Source of the DNA: an uncultured Candidatus Saccharibacteria bacterium
GTDB lineage: Bacteria; Patescibacteriota; Doudnabacteria; UBA920
DNA length: 45,372 nt
Assembly: GCA_964473815.1 (NCBI GenBank)
Contig: CAYYQK010000003.1
Coordinates: 108,966 to 154,337 of the forward strand
Direction of reading: 5' to 3'
Of this stretch, positions 29,152 through 41,329 are shown piece by piece (the first letter of the stretch is position 1; the number at the start of each line of letters is the position of its first letter). The notes under the pieces are model-generated. The model ran no database searches and had not been told where the DNA came from. It worked only from the letters and a program-made list of their open reading frames with translations. The position numbers were made by a program, and so were the translations under genes.

Positions 29152-29227
29152 GGTGGCTGTAGTGTAATGGCAACACGGCGCTCTGTGGCAGCGCAATCGC
29201 GGGTTCGATTTCCCGTCAGCCACCCCA
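29152..29227 (+). tRNA. tRNA-His, anticodon GTG (complete second copy)
   Basis: G-1, acceptor gtggctg/cagccac, discriminator C, CCA, loop CT-GTG-GC; 8-nt T loop. Confidence 0.88.
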
Positions 29228-34346: not shown

Positions 34347-35369
34347 TTATCGCAACAGGAAGTTATTTTTAATTGTATTTTCTAAGGAGTAATTATTAGA
34401 GTGCTTTAGCATACCCAAATATGACTGTACGGTTTGGTAGAAACTATCAAATTCAAGCTCGCCTGCCGTTAATAAATCATCCTTATAAGATAATTTCTTT
34501 AACATCCTGTTTTTGGTCTTTCGTCTTATTCCAATATATTTAGGCAAAATAATGTATCCTAAGAAGTCTATCCCCTGTGTATACTTACGCAGTTCAATTT
34601 TATTAGGATGTAAATAAACCCCTAACCTACCTGATACAAAGACTGAAACCCATTTCAGTATTTCTTCCAAGTAATTTCTATCTTTATGGACAATTGCAAA
34701 ATCATCAGCATAACGAAAGTAATACTTTACCCCAAGTTTATGTTTTACAAACTGGTCTAATTCATTCAGGAAAATGTTGGCAAAGATTTGTGATGTCAGA
34801 TTACCAATAGGAATGCCTTTGCCCTGTGAAAAGCTCCCGAGTATTTCTCGTATCAACCATAGAAATCGCTTATCCTTTATTCTCTTTTCGATAATTTGCA
34901 GAAGCAAGTTATGAGGAACACTGTGAAAAAATTGTTTTATATCACACTTCAAAACATATGTTTGCCGAGAGCCATTCTGACTTTCTTCCCTTAATGCTTT
35001 TCTGAGGTTTTCGACGGCGCGATGCGAACCCTTATCAAGCCTTGATGAGTAAGAATGAAAGATAAAAGTAGGGTCAAAAATTTCATACAATTTAGCAAAG
35101 ACCAAATGGTGAACCAGCCTATCTCTTACAGTAGCTTTGCTTATAATTCTGTGTTTTGGGTCATAGATGTGAAAGGTTGTATACCGCCCGTGTCTGTATG
35201 TTTGATTGACGAGCTGATGATGCAAGTTGAACATATTGTCTTCCAAATATCGTTCAAAGTGCATTACATCACTTTTCGAAATCTTACCGCGCTTAAACTC
35301 ATCCCAAGAAACCAGTATGTTTTCCAAACTAACTAAGAAAGGATAATTAACACTATGAACAACTTGCAT
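34347..35369 (-). CDS. DGR reverse transcriptase
   Basis: DPK.R.I.KA.VRDR.VHH, KCDIKQFF.S, GIPIGNLTSQIFAN, RYADDF, IDFLGY; no internal stops. Confidence 0.96.
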   Translation of the reverse strand: MQVVHSVNYPFLVSLENILVSWDEFKRGKISKSDVMHFERYLEDNMFNLHHQLVNQTYRHGRYTTFHIYDPKHRIISKATVRDRLVHHLVFAKLYEIFDPTFIFHSYSSRLDKGSHRAVENLRKALREESQNGSRQTYVLKCDIKQFFHSVPHNLLLQIIEKRIKDKRFLWLIREILGSFSQGKGIPIGNLTSQIFANIFLNELDQFVKHKLGVKYYFRYADDFAIVHKDRNYLEEILKWVSVFVSGRLGVYLHPNKIELRKYTQGIDFLGYIILPKYIGIRRKTKNRMLKKLSYKDDLLTAGELEFDSFYQTVQSYLGMLKHSNNYSLENTIKNNFLLR

Positions 35370-35720
35370 AATAAAGATTATTTAGACGAAATCCCGATAA
35401 TTAGAAAAGTATACGAACTTTACAAACTATACTACGGTTATTTAGAATTGTTCCCGAAAAAAGACAAATATGCTTTAGGCAGTAAATGTGAATTATACAT
35501 TATCGCCGTCCTCGAGCTCTTGCTATCCGCAGGTAGTCTTCCCAAAGAAAGCAAGGGTGAAGTAATACAACAAGCCAGTGTTAAGTTTGATACGCTAAAA
35601 GTTTTGTTGCGGATGGCCAGAGAGCTTGGGTTATTAGATAACAAGAAGTATATTGCGCTACAAACCTGTATCCAAGAAATAGGCCGTATGCTCGGTGGAT
35701 GGCAACGCTCCTTAAAGTAA
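35355..35720 (+). CDS. avd: DGR accessory variability determinant (Avd, four-helix bundle)
   Basis: FPKKDKYALG, LK.LLR.A.EL, KY.....I.EIGRMLGGW. Confidence 0.9.
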   Translation: MNNLHNKDYLDEIPIIRKVYELYKLYYGYLELFPKKDKYALGSKCELYIIAVLELLLSAGSLPKESKGEVIQQASVKFDTLKVLLRMARELGLLDNKKYIALQTCIQEIGRMLGGWQRSLK

Positions 35721-35751
35721 CAGGAGTTCCTCAATCAAGAGGAACTCCTGT
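35720..35751. other. Perfect 13-bp hairpin just 3' of the TR (minus-strand sense)
   Basis: acaggagttcctc-aatcaa-gaggaactcctgt. Confidence 0.85.
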
Positions 35752-35763
35752 AACCAGACACAA

Positions 35764-35884
35764 CCCGAGAACGACGAGACCACCAGCGTAGTTGTCGTTG
35801 GCATTGTCGAGGTTGATCCTGTTGTCGAAGTTGAGGTTGTCGTCGTTGGCGTTGAAGTAGAGCGAGTTGTCAGACGACTGCCAC
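35764..35884 (-). repeat. DGR template repeat (TR)
   Basis: 121 nt; in the VR frame it has 10 AAY codons and 31 adenines, none at third codon positions. Confidence 0.97.
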
Positions 35885-36141
35885 CACTCAACGAAAATTG
35901 CCGTTTCCCATCCATACCACCAGAACATTAGCCTTACCGCATTTCTACTTATACTCTAATTGTTCTTGTATTTAATCCGCCTATAACAGGCTTAAGAAAC
36001 AGCAAGTAGTGTCTGATGTTTTGGTATACTCTCTTGCAATCCACTCGAACTGCAAAACTCTGATACTTAGAAAACTCAGGATTTCGGTAACGACAATCCG
36101 TAGACGGCCGTGTATTAACCTACTTTCAGAGATATTATACC

Positions 36142-36184
36142 AAAAAGAAAAGCGGGGGCAATGATATTTCACATTGCGCCCCGT
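36142..36184 (-). terminator. Hairpin/terminator downstream of target 1
   Basis: cgggggcaatg...cattgcgccccg with a minus-strand T run. Confidence 0.7.
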
Positions 36185-36267
36185 ACGATTGATAGATTTC
36201 GGAGACCAAAGTCCAAGAGCCAAAGCCCTGAACCAAAAACAAGTTTCCAAAATCCGAAGACCTTTCA

Positions 36268-37260
36268 CTACCCGAGAACGACGAGACCACCAGCGCAGTA
36301 GTCGTAGGCATCGTCGAGGACGATCCCGTAGTCGAAGAGGAGGTTGCCGTCGCGGGCGCCGAAGTAGAGCGAGCAGTCAGACGACTGCCACTGCATTACG
36401 GCAAGGTCGAGCAAGGGCGTTTTGCTGTCCCGAGCTAATACATCTGGAAAAGCCACCATCGCTCCCGCAGCGTCGAAACCGCCAGCAAGCAGGAACTTGT
36501 CAGGCAGGCTCGCCATCTGTTCACGGTCGGCGTGGACGCTGAAACCTTGCAGGCAATTCGGAAAGTAAATCCCGACCACGTTGCCTTGCTTCATCGCTTC
36601 GACGAGCCGTTCGTGACGAGAGCCTTCCACTATAGTGGTCTGACCAGCGAGAGTTCCTTTGCGGTAGTTGTAAAAACTGCGCTTGGGAAACTCTGCCTTG
36701 TAGCTTCGCTCAACGGCGGGCAGGAACACTTCGTCCAATACCCGACCATAGTCGTCAACCTGTGTCTGCGGCAGATAGAACGGCAAATGAACGCCGTTGG
36801 TGATGAGTTGGGTCTTTTCGTCAACCCGCAAACCATCCAAGATTGCCTCGGCACGGTTCTCAAACTCGTCCGCCGAAATCGCCTCTTTCAGGACAAAGCA
36901 ATCAACAATGCGAGCAAGCCGCTCGGCGTAGTTAAGCTTCGTGTGTTTCAGAAAGTAGTTGCGACTTGCGTCCGTGACTGAAGCGGTAAGTGTGCGAGGC
37001 GGGATGCGACGACCGTGCTTGTCGAACCACTTAATAATCGCATCGGTCAAACTAACTTCTTTCTCGCCACGCAGGATAGCTTCAACCGCTTCCATTCCGC
37101 CGAGAATGTTCACAAGGGCTTCGTTCTGCCCAAGGTTCATCTCGCCGTATTTGGGTGTTGCAAGCTGCTTCCCCGCCAGCAGTCCGTCAATGCCTTTACG
37201 CCCATTGAGCAAATCAGCAAGCGTAATAACTTCGTTAATTTTCAAATCTCCGTGTTTCAC
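36268..37260 (-). CDS. DGR target protein 1 (330 aa from GTG 37260), C-terminal variable region
   Basis: Ends in VR1; SD aaggagga 7 nt before the GTG; paralog of target 2. Confidence 0.92.
   Translation of the reverse strand: MKHGDLKINEVITLADLLNGRKGIDGLLAGKQLATPKYGEMNLGQNEALVNILGGMEAVEAILRGEKEVSLTDAIIKWFDKHGRRIPPRTLTASVTDASRNYFLKHTKLNYAERLARIVDCFVLKEAISADEFENRAEAILDGLRVDEKTQLITNGVHLPFYLPQTQVDDYGRVLDEVFLPAVERSYKAEFPKRSFYNYRKGTLAGQTTIVEGSRHERLVEAMKQGNVVGIYFPNCLQGFSVHADREQMASLPDKFLLAGGFDAAGAMVAFPDVLARDSKTPLLDLAVMQWQSSDCSLYFGARDGNLLFDYGIVLDDAYDYCAGGLVVLG
36271..36391 (-). repeat. Variable repeat VR1
   Basis: 17 mismatches to TR, all at TR adenines. Confidence 0.97.
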
Positions 37261-37350
37261 TGTAAAATCCTCCTTCAGGCTATTTGCCCGAATTTTCTGC
37301 AAATTCCACTACCCGTGGATTGGGAACTTTCCGTGATGAAAAGATGTATA

Positions 37351-37379
37351 AATATAGCATATTTTTAGCTTTTAGTCAA
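37351..37379 (-). promoter_or_regulatory. Promoter of target 1
   Basis: TTGACT-N17-TATATT with TG extension. Confidence 0.7.
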
Positions 37380-37410
37380 CCCTTCGACCAAAAGCTATTT
37401 TTGACTTAAT

Positions 37411-37452
37411 AAACAAAAAAACGGGGCGATGAAATTGCACATCGCACCCGTT
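37411..37452 (-). terminator. Hairpin/terminator downstream of target 2
   Basis: aacggggcgatg...catcgcacccgtt with a minus-strand T run; homologous to the target 1 hairpin. Confidence 0.7.
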
Positions 37453-37527
37453 GTAGAAAATTCGAGACCAAAGACCAGAACCCAAAAGCCGAGACAAGCC
37501 CAAGCTTCCGAACTCCAAAATCCGACA

Positions 37528-38463
37528 CTACCCGAGAACGACGAGACCACCAGCGCAGAAGACGCTGGCACCGTCGAGGCCGATCCCGCTGCCGAAGCTG
37601 AGGTAGTCGCCGCTGGCGAAGAAGTAGAGCGAGCGGCCAGACGACTGCCACTGCATTGCGGCAAGGTCGAGAAGCGGAGTAGAGCCGTCCCGAGCAAGAA
37701 CGTCGGGATAAGCAATCATTGCAGCTGCGGCATCAAAGCCACCTGCCAGCAAAAACTGCTCTGGCAAACTATCCATCTGCTCACGGTCGGCATCCACCGA
37801 ATACCCTTGCAGGCAATTCGGGAAGTAAATGCCAACCACTGTGGCTTTCTTCATTGCCTCGACCAACCGCTCGTGGCGAGAACCAGCGACGATTGTCGTT
37901 TGTTCCGCCAAAGAACCTTTACGGTAGTTATTGAATGGTCGGTTACCGCCGAAATGCTCTGCATAGGAGTTATTCACTCCCGTCAGGAACACCTCGTCCA
38001 GAACCTGACCGTAGTCTTCGACATCCATCTGCGGAATGACGAAAGGCAGATAAGTGCCTTTGAGCAGATTGCTCACCCTATCGTCTTCACGGATGCCATC
38101 GATAATTGCTTCGCTCCTCGTCTCAAAGTCCGCCGCCGAAATGTTGTAAAGATACTTTGGCGAGTTGAGATAAGTTTGCAACCGAGCCAGTCGCTGACCG
38201 TAGTCGAGCGTTGGCTGATTGAAGCGATAGTCACGGTCGGGTTTCGTGGTATTAGCCTTCAACCCCCGAGGGCGAATGCGAACACCGTTACGGTTGAACA
38301 GGGACACGTTCTGCGGTCTTGCCTTGAGCAGCAGTTTACTGTCAACGACTTCCGTCGCCAATGTTCCTGCGGCTATGGCTCTGGCGTTGTTTTCGCCAAG
38401 ATTTTTGACCAAAGCGTTAAGGTCGCCTGTTTTCCAGTCCTTAATAAAAAATTCCGATTTCAT
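37528..38463 (-). CDS. DGR target protein 2 (311 aa), C-terminal variable region
   Basis: Ends in VR2; SD aaggagga; paralog of target 1. Confidence 0.93.
   Translation of the reverse strand: MKSEFFIKDWKTGDLNALVKNLGENNARAIAAGTLATEVVDSKLLLKARPQNVSLFNRNGVRIRPRGLKANTTKPDRDYRFNQPTLDYGQRLARLQTYLNSPKYLYNISAADFETRSEAIIDGIREDDRVSNLLKGTYLPFVIPQMDVEDYGQVLDEVFLTGVNNSYAEHFGGNRPFNNYRKGSLAEQTTIVAGSRHERLVEAMKKATVVGIYFPNCLQGYSVDADREQMDSLPEQFLLAGGFDAAAAMIAYPDVLARDGSTPLLDLAAMQWQSSGRSLYFFASGDYLSFGSGIGLDGASVFCAGGLVVLG
37531..37651 (-). repeat. Variable repeat VR2
   Basis: 21 mismatches to TR, all at TR adenines. Confidence 0.97.
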
Positions 38464-38548
38464 TGTCTTCCTCCTTGGGCTTCATTGCCCGAATGGTGAT
38501 TTGCCTCTACCCCGAGGCAGGGACTGCTTGGTATCAAGCAGATGTATA

Positions 38549-38577
38549 AATATAACATATTTGAGCGCATTAGTCAA
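38549..38577 (-). promoter_or_regulatory. Promoter of target 2
   Basis: TTGACT-N17-TATATT with TG extension; same architecture as the target 1 promoter. Confidence 0.7.
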
Positions 38578-38639
38578 TAATTTGACTGTCCCCTAACTTT
38601 CCTATATAATCTTATATAGCTAACTATATACGATTTAAT

Positions 38640-39692
38640 ATGACTAATTACGAAAAGCGACTACTAACTATACCCGCCTCTGTTGCCACCAAAATTGGCC
38701 AAATTGACGAGTTAAAAGGTCAATGGGTGTCTGGGGCGCAATTAAACCCACAGGTGCTGGGACGGCTTAAAAAGTCTGTTCTTGTTACATCCACAGGAGC
38801 TTCTACTCGCATAGAGGGAGCTATATTGTCGGATGAAGATGTAGAAAAATTCGTGAAAGGGATTGGTTTGCAAAAATTCTCCGATAGAGATAAAGGCGAA
38901 GTAAAAGGTTACTACGAATTACTGAACACAGTTTTTGATAACTGGCGGGCTATACGATTAAGCGAAAGCACTGTAAAACACTTCCACAAAGAACTGCTGA
39001 AATATGTAGGCAAAGACGAGAGGCATCGCGGTGAATACAAGATTGCCGACAACACTGTAGAAATGAAAGATGCATCTGGGAAAACAATTGCTGTGATGTT
39101 CAAACCAACACCAGCATACTTAACACCCAAAGAGATGCAAGAACTGGTTGAGTGGACGCAAACAGCAACAAAGGAAAAGAAATACCACCCGCTACTGATA
39201 ATTGCAAACTTCATAGTTGAGTTCTTAAACATCCACCCTTTCACAGACGGGAACGGCAGACTTAGCCGAATTTTAACTAACCTCTTATTGTTAAAAGAGG
39301 GCTATTTATATGCGCCTTATGTGTCGCACGAAAAGATTATTGAAGATAACAAACCAGACTACTATTTAGCATTACGAAAAAGTCAAAAGACCATTAAGAC
39401 TGCAAAGGAGGACATAATCCCGTGGCTTGAATTTTTCTTAGACACATTTTTACAACAATCTCGTATGGCCGTTGAACTCCTATCTGCTGAGAATGTAGAA
39501 AAGTTATTCTCCCCTACCCAGCTTAAAGTGTGGGAGTATTTACAAAAAGTAGATGAGGCAACTCCTATGGAAATTAGCGAACAAATGAGTGTTCCTCGCC
39601 CAACTGTCAATCAAGTGTTAGACAAACTGCTCAAATTAAAACGCATTGAACGGCTTGGTGCGGGTAGAGCAACAAGATACAAAAAACTATAA
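38640..39692 (+). CDS. Fic family protein with a C-terminal winged-helix
   Basis: HPFTDGNGRLSR catalytic motif; N-terminal STRIEG inhibitory-type motif. Confidence 0.93.
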   Translation: MTNYEKRLLTIPASVATKIGQIDELKGQWVSGAQLNPQVLGRLKKSVLVTSTGASTRIEGAILSDEDVEKFVKGIGLQKFSDRDKGEVKGYYELLNTVFDNWRAIRLSESTVKHFHKELLKYVGKDERHRGEYKIADNTVEMKDASGKTIAVMFKPTPAYLTPKEMQELVEWTQTATKEKKYHPLLIIANFIVEFLNIHPFTDGNGRLSRILTNLLLLKEGYLYAPYVSHEKIIEDNKPDYYLALRKSQKTIKTAKEDIIPWLEFFLDTFLQQSRMAVELLSAENVEKLFSPTQLKVWEYLQKVDEATPMEISEQMSVPRPTVNQVLDKLLKLKRIERLGAGRATRYKKL

Positions 39693-39697
39693 AAGTT

Positions 39698-41329
39698 ATG
39701 GTAAAAACTCCCTCTCAAAAACCAAAGCTTGGTGTTGGTTATATTCGGGAAAGCACCGAGGAACAGGACAAGGGCTTTTCCCCTGCCAACCAAAAACGCA
39801 CTATAGAAGATTACGCGGCTAAGAACAATATCAAAATTACGGATTGGTATAAAGACTTAGTAACTGGAACGAAAGCCAGCAAACGCGATGACTTTCAACG
39901 AATGATTACCGATGCAATGGAAAAGAAGTTTGAAGTTATTTTAGTATTCCATACTTCGCGCTTTGCCCGTAATGTATCAGAAGCCCGACAATACAAAGAC
40001 CTACTTCGTAAGAAACAAGGTATTGATGTAATTTTCGTAACTCAACACTTTGGCGATTATGATAGCCCAAGTGGCTTTTTGAACGAAGGCGTAAACGAGT
40101 TGTTTGATGAATACTACTCTAAGCAACTCAGTTTTTGGGTGCGTTCAACACTAATGGAAAAGCGGAAACAAGGAAAACAAATTGGAAGCGTTCCATTGGG
40201 TTATTACAAAAAGAAGCTGGGTTTTGATAAGGATAAAGGTAGAGCAATTTATGCCAAAGAATGGTTAGTGCATCCACAGGAAAGTAAATTGGTGAAAAAG
40301 ATATTTACACTCTACGCTACTGGCAAATATTCTTATGCTGATGTAGCCGCAGAGCTAAATAAAATGGGAGCTAAGACAAAAAGCGGTTATCCTTTCACTT
40401 ATAGTTCAATCAAAGATATTTTGGACAACCAAACTTATCTTGGCAAAGTATTTTCTAAACGGAGAGGTTATCCAACCCACACAGGTGAACATCCAGCTAT
40501 TATTACACAAAAGCTTTTTGATAAGGTGCAAGAAGTTATTGCGCAACGACGAAATACACAGGGTAGACCCGTTGCTCAACATAGGTTTTATCTCTTGCAG
40601 GATTTAATCTACTGCTGGAATTGCCGTAAATATCTAAAGGGTAAGGAAGATAATCCCAATCCTCGCGCTCAGATGTTACCAAAAATGTATTGTGAAACTC
40701 ACCAATATGTAGACGCCAAAGGTGTTAGACACGAAAAGCTAACTTACCACTGCAAGATTGCGAGGGAAACCAAATCGTGCAAACAGCCCATTGTTGCGGC
40801 AGATATAATTGATAAGCAAGTTATCGCTTTAATGGAAGGGTTTAAGCTTCCTAATGATGTGATTGAGATGACAGTCAATAGATTAAAGGTCTTATTCAAG
40901 CACGCTCAGCGTTCAGTAAAAGATTTAGATACTGTTGCAAAATTAGAAGCTAAAAAGAAAAAACTAAACTGGATGTTCGCCAATACCGAAGAACTAACCG
41001 AGGCTGACTATATAAAACAGTTGCGGGAGCTTAACAACGAGCTTCAAAAATATGATGATTTGGGTTTAGTAAAAAATAACTCTGTAACCAAAGAAACCGA
41101 ATACATAAAAAAGACCGAGAAGTTCTTAAAGAATTTCAAACAATTCTGGCGTTCTGACATTGGTGACGAAGAACGCAGGGCTTGGATACAAATGACAATT
41201 AAGCGGGTATGGGTTAAAAATCAGAAAGTTATAGCCATAGAACCGCACGATGATTTTAAGCCTTTATTCGCAGCGCATAGAAAAGTCTTGGTTCAAGCCC
41301 CGTCATCCACCCCACAAAGAACGAACTGA
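39698..41329 (+). CDS. Large serine recombinase A
   Basis: GYIRESTEEQ catalytic motif, SRFARN, recombinase domain, zinc ribbon, coiled coil. Confidence 0.93.
   Translation: MVKTPSQKPKLGVGYIRESTEEQDKGFSPANQKRTIEDYAAKNNIKITDWYKDLVTGTKASKRDDFQRMITDAMEKKFEVILVFHTSRFARNVSEARQYKDLLRKKQGIDVIFVTQHFGDYDSPSGFLNEGVNELFDEYYSKQLSFWVRSTLMEKRKQGKQIGSVPLGYYKKKLGFDKDKGRAIYAKEWLVHPQESKLVKKIFTLYATGKYSYADVAAELNKMGAKTKSGYPFTYSSIKDILDNQTYLGKVFSKRRGYPTHTGEHPAIITQKLFDKVQEVIAQRRNTQGRPVAQHRFYLLQDLIYCWNCRKYLKGKEDNPNPRAQMLPKMYCETHQYVDAKGVRHEKLTYHCKIARETKSCKQPIVAADIIDKQVIALMEGFKLPNDVIEMTVNRLKVLFKHAQRSVKDLDTVAKLEAKKKKLNWMFANTEELTEADYIKQLRELNNELQKYDDLGLVKNNSVTKETEYIKKTEKFLKNFKQFWRSDIGDEERRAWIQMTIKRVWVKNQKVIAIEPHDDFKPLFAAHRKVLVQAPSSTPQRTN
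41290..41314 (+). other. Displaced 3' end of tRNA-His (T arm, acceptor strand, CCA); putative attR of element A and junction of element B
   Basis: gg-TTCAAGC-cccgt-catccac-c-cca; catccac pairs 7/7 with gtggatg at 29009-29015. Confidence 0.85.

Follow-up and report, generated by a model that had tools for sequence, protein, structure and literature searches.

It is still not settled how the cDNA of a diversity-generating retroelement (DGR) locates its target and gains entry to it (PMC12875486). The question arises anew in a DGR of an uncultured Candidatus Saccharibacteria bacterium, which occupies positions 34347-38577 on the minus strand of the stretch that we analysed (45,372 nt of contig CAYYQK010000003.1, hereafter the window) and comprises two target genes, a template repeat (TR) and a reverse transcriptase (RT) gene, with an avd gene antisense to the rest. 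Each target gene ends in a variable region (VR) and is followed by a GT-rich tract and a hairpin. Which of these elements, if any, tells the retroelement where to home? The site of initiation of mutagenic homing (IMH) cannot discriminate VR from TR here, a repeat stands in place of a hairpin at the VR flank, and activity can be read from public metagenomes, which makes the locus a natural test case. We consider it probable that an active DGR serves tandem autonomous target cassettes whose hairpins are terminators and whose tract, an array of degenerate heptamers, is a cis element of the cassette.

The system has the two components that define a DGR, an RT and a TR/VR pair; TR and RT lie on one strand, the TR 394 nt upstream of where the RT gene starts. 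The VRs form the final 122 nt of two paralogous genes, and 35 of the 35 mismatches between the TR and the two VRs in this 122-nt block fall at TR adenines. Only one difference does not involve a TR adenine: at the second position of the stop codon, TTG in the TR (35763) corresponds to TAG in the targets (36269 and 37529). With that codon excepted, the statement in the first-pass annotation of this DNA that all non-adenine VR positions equal the TR holds for both sets of mismatches (16 and 19). Furthermore, where the paralogs share an amino acid, they also share the codon in 25 of 25 cases within the VR, as against 28 of 74 in the 100 codons upstream. This codon pattern bears out the further proposal that both VRs have been overwritten from the TR since the paralogs diverged, which the sequence comparison thus supports well.

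To compare VRs between samples, we used contigs of four independent DNA runs that match the window exactly over 35700-38620 outside the VRs. Three VR2 alleles are present among the four metagenome runs plus the window: relative to the window, VR2 carries 22 substitutions in X1 and X3, which share one allele, and 18 in X5. VR1 differs by two substitutions in X5 only and is otherwise invariant. All of these between-sample differences (22 VR2 and two VR1 positions) correspond to TR adenines. Because the VR2 differences are confined in this way, the DGR is active at present. The metagenome runs that contain this stretch derive from wastewater, sludge and bioreactor samples. Breaks of contigs at the VRs were dropped as evidence of heterogeneity, since the shared 31-nt IMH alone would break k-mer assembly.

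VR2 is far more variable than VR1 despite a common TR, IMH, tract type and terminator type. The sharing of TR-flank sequence extends five bases (GTGTC) further in VR2 than in VR1.

The two targets appear to be tandem paralogs of a gene family specific to the candidate phyla radiation (CPR), each arranged as an autonomous expression cassette. In the proposed order, a sigma-70-type promoter, a structured leader of about 80 nt and a strong Shine-Dalgarno (SD) sequence would precede a coding sequence ending in the 122-nt VR; a GU-rich 3' untranslated region (UTR) of 77-84 nt, built of about nine degenerate GGnyTTT heptamers, and a Rho-independent terminator would follow. The complete unit from promoter to terminator recurs at unrelated sites in two related loci (these carry L numbers): L051 and L049/L050, the latter with genes for a Zip transporter and a methyltransferase on either side. 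These unrelated contexts support the proposal, made from the sequence, that the cassettes are self-contained. A tract-less version, 90% identical to target 2, lies beside rpsF and ychF in L045, and L046 is also tract-less. The two-cassette layout is found again in L048 and in the metagenome-assembled genome that yielded L001 and L007. The GC content of the target cassettes is 53-56% (36400-38400), against 35-40% around them and 33-40% in the RT, avd and surrounding element, a break in composition that points to a separate origin or to separate constraints.

The hairpin at the end of each cassette is best read as a standard intrinsic terminator, because a stable stem is combined with a sense-strand T-run, a position at the gene end and a promoter directly after it. 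Specifically, a stable GC-rich stem-loop (10-11 bp with a bulge; 8-nt loops TGAAATAT and TGCAATTT) past the stop codon leads directly into a U-run on the transcribed strand. The cassette 1 promoter lies within 40 nt downstream of the end of cassette 2, and the T-run of hairpin 1 falls within the spacer of a TTGCCC-16-TATAAT site. Rho-independent terminators likewise have a GC-rich stem of 10-11 bp with about -19 kcal/mol, then 7-11 T-rich sense-strand bases at the gene end; the present putative examples are unusual only in the long GU-rich 3' UTR that precedes them. Each hairpin with its T-run would end a transcript and insulate it from the unit that comes next: for cassette 2 this is the target 1 promoter, and for cassette 1 the TR-RNA promoter. 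Some DGR targets are known to end in terminators, which follow the IMH in a minority of DGRs (Wu et al., 2018, PMC5758913).

The first-pass annotation had described the hairpins as homologous with a compensatory change, and this change is indeed present (GCAATG/CATTGC versus GCGATG/CATCGC). In the 3' flanks of relatives, taken from genome, metagenome and Logan contigs, homologous hairpins lie 3' of the tract in L002, L048, L049/L050, L051 and L053, and analogous ones in L019/L020, L055 and L057. Across loci their stability ranges from -17 to -27 kcal/mol, with the T-run immediately 3' and on the sense strand only. When seven sequences were placed in a hand-made structural alignment, ten of ten stem positions paired in all seven, and four to five positions showed double changes, with G-T intermediates present. 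Such covariation would reflect selection for an RNA stem, with no DGR-specific signal in it.

Judged by comparison among relatives, the tract between stop codon and terminator is a real, family-specific and previously undescribed feature; Wu et al. (2018, PMC5758913) describe neither it nor the leader. Tract 2 (37527-37451) contains 12% A and 71% G+T, and tract 1 (36267-36184) 19% A and 64% G+T. In the cores of 63-65 nt these values are 6-10% and 73-77%, with adenines present in the last 12-20 nt before the hairpin. The earlier description of a G/T-rich, A-poor tract of about 75-85 nt thus stands for length (77 and 84 nt) and G/T-richness, but the poverty in A holds for the core only. The 80-mer with the highest G+T content of the whole 45-kb window overlaps tract 2. 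By autocorrelation, the co-occurrence of G with G at a lag of 7 nt exceeds that of shuffles by 2.7 to 6.2 sd in every long tract. Tandem Repeats Finder did not call the tract, and no further array of this kind was found on either strand of the window. The cyanobacterial STRR repeat was dropped as an identity for the heptamer, the relatives being Saccharibacteria and other CPR bacteria.

All five intact DGR loci of the family that we retrieved (window, L048/L007, L019/L020/L025, L053/L054 and L057; 41-90% protein identity) have an A-poor tract of 52-90 nt after the VR. The most distant two, L019/L020 (lag-7 z +1.9) and L057 (irregular GG spacing), show the 7-nt period only weakly. The remote copies L049/L050 and L051, which have no DGR within the 1-8 kb of available flank, carry a tract after the VR as well, and L055 has a shorter one. 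Tract 1 is 89% identical to its counterpart in L048. Identity of the tract between orthologs, set against identity at 4-fold sites, is 0.89/0.67, 0.77/0.55, 0.73/0.44 and 0.69/0.43; shuffled tracts align at about 0.53, so that the excess of the tract is modest. We infer that the pattern (composition, 7-nt period and position after the IMH) is constrained and the sequence itself is not.

At the 5' end of both cassettes, the promoters, the shared sequence and the SD listed by the first-pass annotation are all present. TATATTTATACATCT is shared downstream of both promoters, and the SD AAGGAGGA lies 5-7 nt before the start codon (38476-38469 for target 2; 37278-37271 for target 1). By number alone, promoter-like sites in the region are not above chance (12 versus 7.1 +/- 3.1 in shuffles), and the two promoters are supported because they are conserved in related loci. 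The conservation of the leader extends over about 80 nt and is not limited to the shared TTATACATCT; the target 1 leader is 93% identical to that of L048, against 67% at 4-fold sites. It begins with a 5'-terminal hairpin (P1) in which pairing is kept while the sequence changes freely, continues with an invariant CCC and a stem P2 that occurs as CCUC/GAGG, CCAC/GUGG or CUGC/GCAG, and then has P3 (GGGC/GCCY), which abuts the SD.

A covariance model of P2 and P3 gave 23 hits in 427 kb, one before every CPR family member and none elsewhere (loci with the leader: window, L001-L007, L019/L020, L038, L045-L055 and L057). Beta- and Gammaproteobacteria have homologs that are not diversified and whose C-terminus is fixed, beside HAD-type and sugar-modifying genes; the model found no match before these, and the leader has no match in Rfam. 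Formal covariation support is modest, with P2 in two registers even after covariance-model realignment, and RNAalifold recovered only P3 from a MAFFT alignment of the leaders. The leader is a candidate cis-regulatory RNA.

Table 1. Features of the DGR locus, in window coordinates
Feature	Position	Strand	Remarks
Reverse transcriptase	34347..35369	-	RVT_1 1.1e-25
avd	35355..35720	+	antisense to TR and RT; bAvd 1.3e-16
Hairpin directly 3' of TR	35722..35753	not assigned	13 bp; between TR and avd stop codon; -27 kcal/mol
Template repeat	35763..35884	-	122 nt, 31 adenines
Structured RNA region upstream of TR	35892..36065	-	sub-threshold match to Rfam RT-16 (RF03019)
Promoter-like site TTGCCC-16-TG-TATAAT	36134..36161	-	overlaps terminator 1
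Putative intrinsic terminator of target 1	36140..36183	-	stem-loop 36183-36153 (-18.6 kcal/mol), T-run 36152-36140
Tract 1, degenerate GGnyTTT heptamer array, 3' UTR	36184..36267	-	84 nt; GG spacing 7,7,14,6,7,7,7; lag-7 z +6.2
VR1	36270..36391	-	TAG stop 36270-36268; 16 mismatches to TR
Target gene 1 (331 aa, GTG start)	36268..37263	-	protein 56% identical to target 2
5' leader of target 1	37264..37344	-	P1, CCC, P2 CCAC-GGGTA-GTGG, P3, SD; minimum free energy (MFE) folds; covariance model 60.2 bits
Predicted promoter of target 1, TTGACT-17-TG-TATATT	37351..37379	-	35/35 identical in ortholog L048
Putative intrinsic terminator of target 2	37411..37450	-	stem-loop 37450-37422 (-19.2 kcal/mol), T-run 37421-37411
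Tract 2, degenerate GGnyTTT heptamer array, 3' UTR	37451..37527	-	77 nt; GG spacing 7,7,8,11,7,7,7; lag-7 z +2.7
VR2	37530..37651	-	TAG stop 37530-37528; 19 mismatches to TR
Target gene 2 (311 aa)	37528..38463	-	no Pfam or NCBIfam family
5' leader of target 2	38464..38542	-	P1, CCC, P2 GCCTC-GGGGTA-GAGGC, P3 GGGC-AATGAA-GCCC, SD; MFE folds; covariance model R1 67.7 bits
Predicted promoter of target 2, TTGACT-17-TG-TATATT	38549..38577	-	equivalent box kept in L045, L047, L051, L001

Two sets of observations weigh against the reading of the locus given above. First, two metatranscriptome contigs from two studies (37297-37526 and 37302-37476; unstranded Logan contigs of depth 2-3) cross hairpin 2. 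They span tract 2, the hairpin, the cassette 1 promoter and part of the leader, and on the leader side they end within 5 nt of each other (37297 and 37302). Either terminator 2 is leaky, or the RNA is antisense with a start near 37280-37300; on the plus strand, a weak promoter-like site has its end at 37268. Second, the IMH is identical to its TR counterpart, IMH*, except for TAG/TTG in the window, L048, L020 and L053, with a 1-nt indel there in L057. When IMH and IMH* are the same, recognition must extend downstream (Wu et al., 2018, PMC5758913). Because of this near identity a downstream discriminator is plausible; a mark of the VR on that side may be needed, and the tract or the hairpin 80 nt away could contribute to it.

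The crossing RNA contigs end inside the target 1 leader, as could be produced by an antisense RNA or by readthrough with a 3' end after P2.

What could the tract contribute to its cassette? As a cis element it might aid retrohoming on the VR side, act at the level of the mRNA or insulate against antisense transcription; it would not form part of a Bordetella-type recognition hairpin module. One tentative possibility is that the tract serves gene expression, either in the mRNA or on the antisense strand. In the sense orientation it could be a GU-rich platform for protein binding or stability, and on the antisense strand a rut-like (AAAGACC)n array that stops convergent transcription into the VR. 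The tract sits between stop codon and terminator, remote copies far from any DGR retain it, and the elaborate conserved leader of these genes suggests post-transcriptional control. The antisense strand of the tract has a C content of 30-35% and a G content of 17%, as suits the rut-like variant, but no convergent gene lies downstream of cassette 2. Metatranscriptome contigs of two studies cover the tract region, although these contigs are unstranded.

A role of the tract as a VR-side determinant of retrohoming, which would designate the VR as recipient and the TR as donor, for instance by keeping the sense strand by the IMH accessible for the cDNA, seems to us somewhat doubtful. In its favour, the stop codon is the single difference between IMH and IMH* in four loci (the fifth, L057, having the indel), the tract begins 2-5 nt past the stop codon in five of the five intact DGR loci, and the TR flank carries a hairpin in its place. 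A reconstitution study favours a cDNA that exploits transient single-strandedness of the sense strand, aided by a stem-loop, so that access to single strands at the target is central to the current model (PMC12875486); that the tract acts through such single-strandedness is conceivable. Several results speak against the idea. VR1 and VR2 differ greatly in variability though both have tracts, the sequence of the tract drifts almost neutrally, and its pairing with the DGR RNA does not exceed chance (RNAduplex z +1.2, +0.3, +0.6 and -2.1 versus shuffles). In addition, the rU:dA-rich hybrids that the tract would give form R-loops poorly, and to our knowledge no known DGR uses an element like this GT-rich heptamer tract. 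If the tract does matter for homing, targets would be marked in a second way, unrelated to the first, and engineered DGRs could be given the tract as a portable element.

The tract-less loci L003 and L052 might seem to bear on this role. In them the VR abuts a hairpin of the TR type, and L003 is static, being invariant in runs of three studies, as expected if the tract were needed for homing. However, these loci have lost their own DGR, and only 87 nt of TR flank and the 3' end of avd are left. The stasis of L003 says nothing about the tract, because the DGR of L003 is deleted. Direct fusions of a VR to a TR-type flank (hairpin and last avd codons), with the rest of the DGR deleted, are present at L003 2493-2580, L052 6997-7085 and L045 6937-6985; they look like fossils of VR-TR recombination.

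A bolder version of the retrohoming role would have donor and recipient told apart by their flanks, the GT-rich heptamer array marking the VR and promoting access of the cDNA, and the hairpin marking the TR. The flanks do differ as this requires, with a tract after the VR and a strong hairpin after the TR (homologous in the window, L048, L053 and L057, absent from L020). We find this division of labour doubtful; if true, it would invert the logic of target recognition relative to Bordetella.

The view that the tract is a functionless remnant of a microsatellite, born by slippage and carried along with the cassette, appears unlikely. With its low complexity taken into account, the tract has an identity near the level of 4-fold sites, tract length varies from 26 to 90 nt among loci, and L045, L046 and L005/L006 lack the tract with no visible harm to the open reading frame (ORF). 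On the other hand, periodicity and A-poverty outlast synonymous sites that are nearly saturated (4-fold identity 0.43-0.44), and the position directly after the stop codon is constant. The units are degenerate and are therefore not being regenerated by recent slippage. Should the tract be irrelevant to homing, targets of CPR DGRs would still travel as promoter-to-terminator units with a dedicated structured leader.

The hairpin itself was compared with the best-studied recognition structure. The Bordetella-type element has a GC-rich 7-10 bp stem and a 4-nt GRNA loop located 4-34 bp from the VR, and it is sensitive to distance, a 6-bp shift in BPP-1 having left only measurable activity (Guo et al., 2011, PMC3240598). 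As in the DGR of Bordetella phage BPP-1, whose target-site elements are GC14-IMH and a hairpin/cruciform, the VR here lies at the 3' end of the target gene, the IMH is repeated at the TR and an inverted repeat occurs downstream of the VR. In contrast to BPP-1, the IMH equals IMH* except at the stop codon, and the inverted repeat, which has a loop of 8 nt and a T-run, is separated from the VR by 77-84 nt that the heptamer tract fills. The strong hairpin that abuts a repeat adjoins the TR rather than the VR. A small Bordetella-like hairpin right after the VR was sought, and none is present in either cassette. The proposal of the first-pass annotation that the hairpin is a target-recognition element, located farther from the IMH than that of Bordetella, is thus very improbable: compensatory changes do maintain the stem, but it is bulged, its loop is not GRNA, it starts 84 nt (cassette 1) or 77 nt (cassette 2) past the stop codon, and termination alone explains both the sense-strand T-run and the abutting promoter.

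The remainder of the locus conforms to the layout TR-(avd)-RT described for CPR-type DGRs (Wu et al., 2018, PMC5758913). Here, too, an antisense avd lies between TR and RT, the targets lie upstream on the TR/RT strand and the VR is of unclassified type; the layout is identical in the four related intact loci (L048/L007, L019/L020/L025, L053/L054 and L057). Unlike in that description, there are two tandem targets, each with a promoter and a terminator. The avd product scores 61.4 bits against Pfam bAvd (cut-off 40) and 78.6 bits against NCBIfam NF033474 (DivGenRetAVD), slightly below the cut-off of 80.

The TTGCCC-16-TG-TATAAT site downstream of cassette 1 is the probable promoter of the TR RNA. 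Its -10 box is followed by GAAAGTAGGTTAAT, an arrangement kept in L002, L019, L048 and L057, and the region from GAAAGTAGGTTAAT leads on to the TR; an RNA contig covers 35953-36103. The conserved blocks GAAAGTAGGTTAAT and ACGGATTG...CCGAAATCC recur upstream of the TR in five loci. The region from this promoter to the TR fits the full-length Rfam model of RT-16 RNA (RF03019) in the window (28.3 bits, E 0.15) and in L020 (6063-6184, 30.4 bits), but the gathering score is 50 and these scores are too low for membership. The region between terminator 1 and the TR probably forms the beginning (5' part) of the RNA of the DGR.

A confident AlphaFold model of the target 2 protein (pLDDT 90.6, pTM 0.83) found no fold match in the PDB with Foldseek (best E 0.18, TM about 0.1), so that the VR scaffold is recognised neither as a C-type lectin nor as an Ig fold. 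A long antisense ORF across target 2 (37429-38499) was rejected as a composition artefact, not being conserved in cassette 1. The Chi-like GCTGGTGG in the IMH was likewise set aside as a coincidence that is not conserved in relatives. Viral contigs were searched for relatives of the system, and none were found there.

The DGR is flanked by a tRNA-His gene (ARAGORN), a Fic-domain gene and a large serine recombinase gene (29153-29227, 38640-41329). In the related locus L053, a LOOT RNA (RF03000), whose 65.5 bits exceed the gathering score, sits a short way upstream of the target cassette, at 152-280 on the minus strand.

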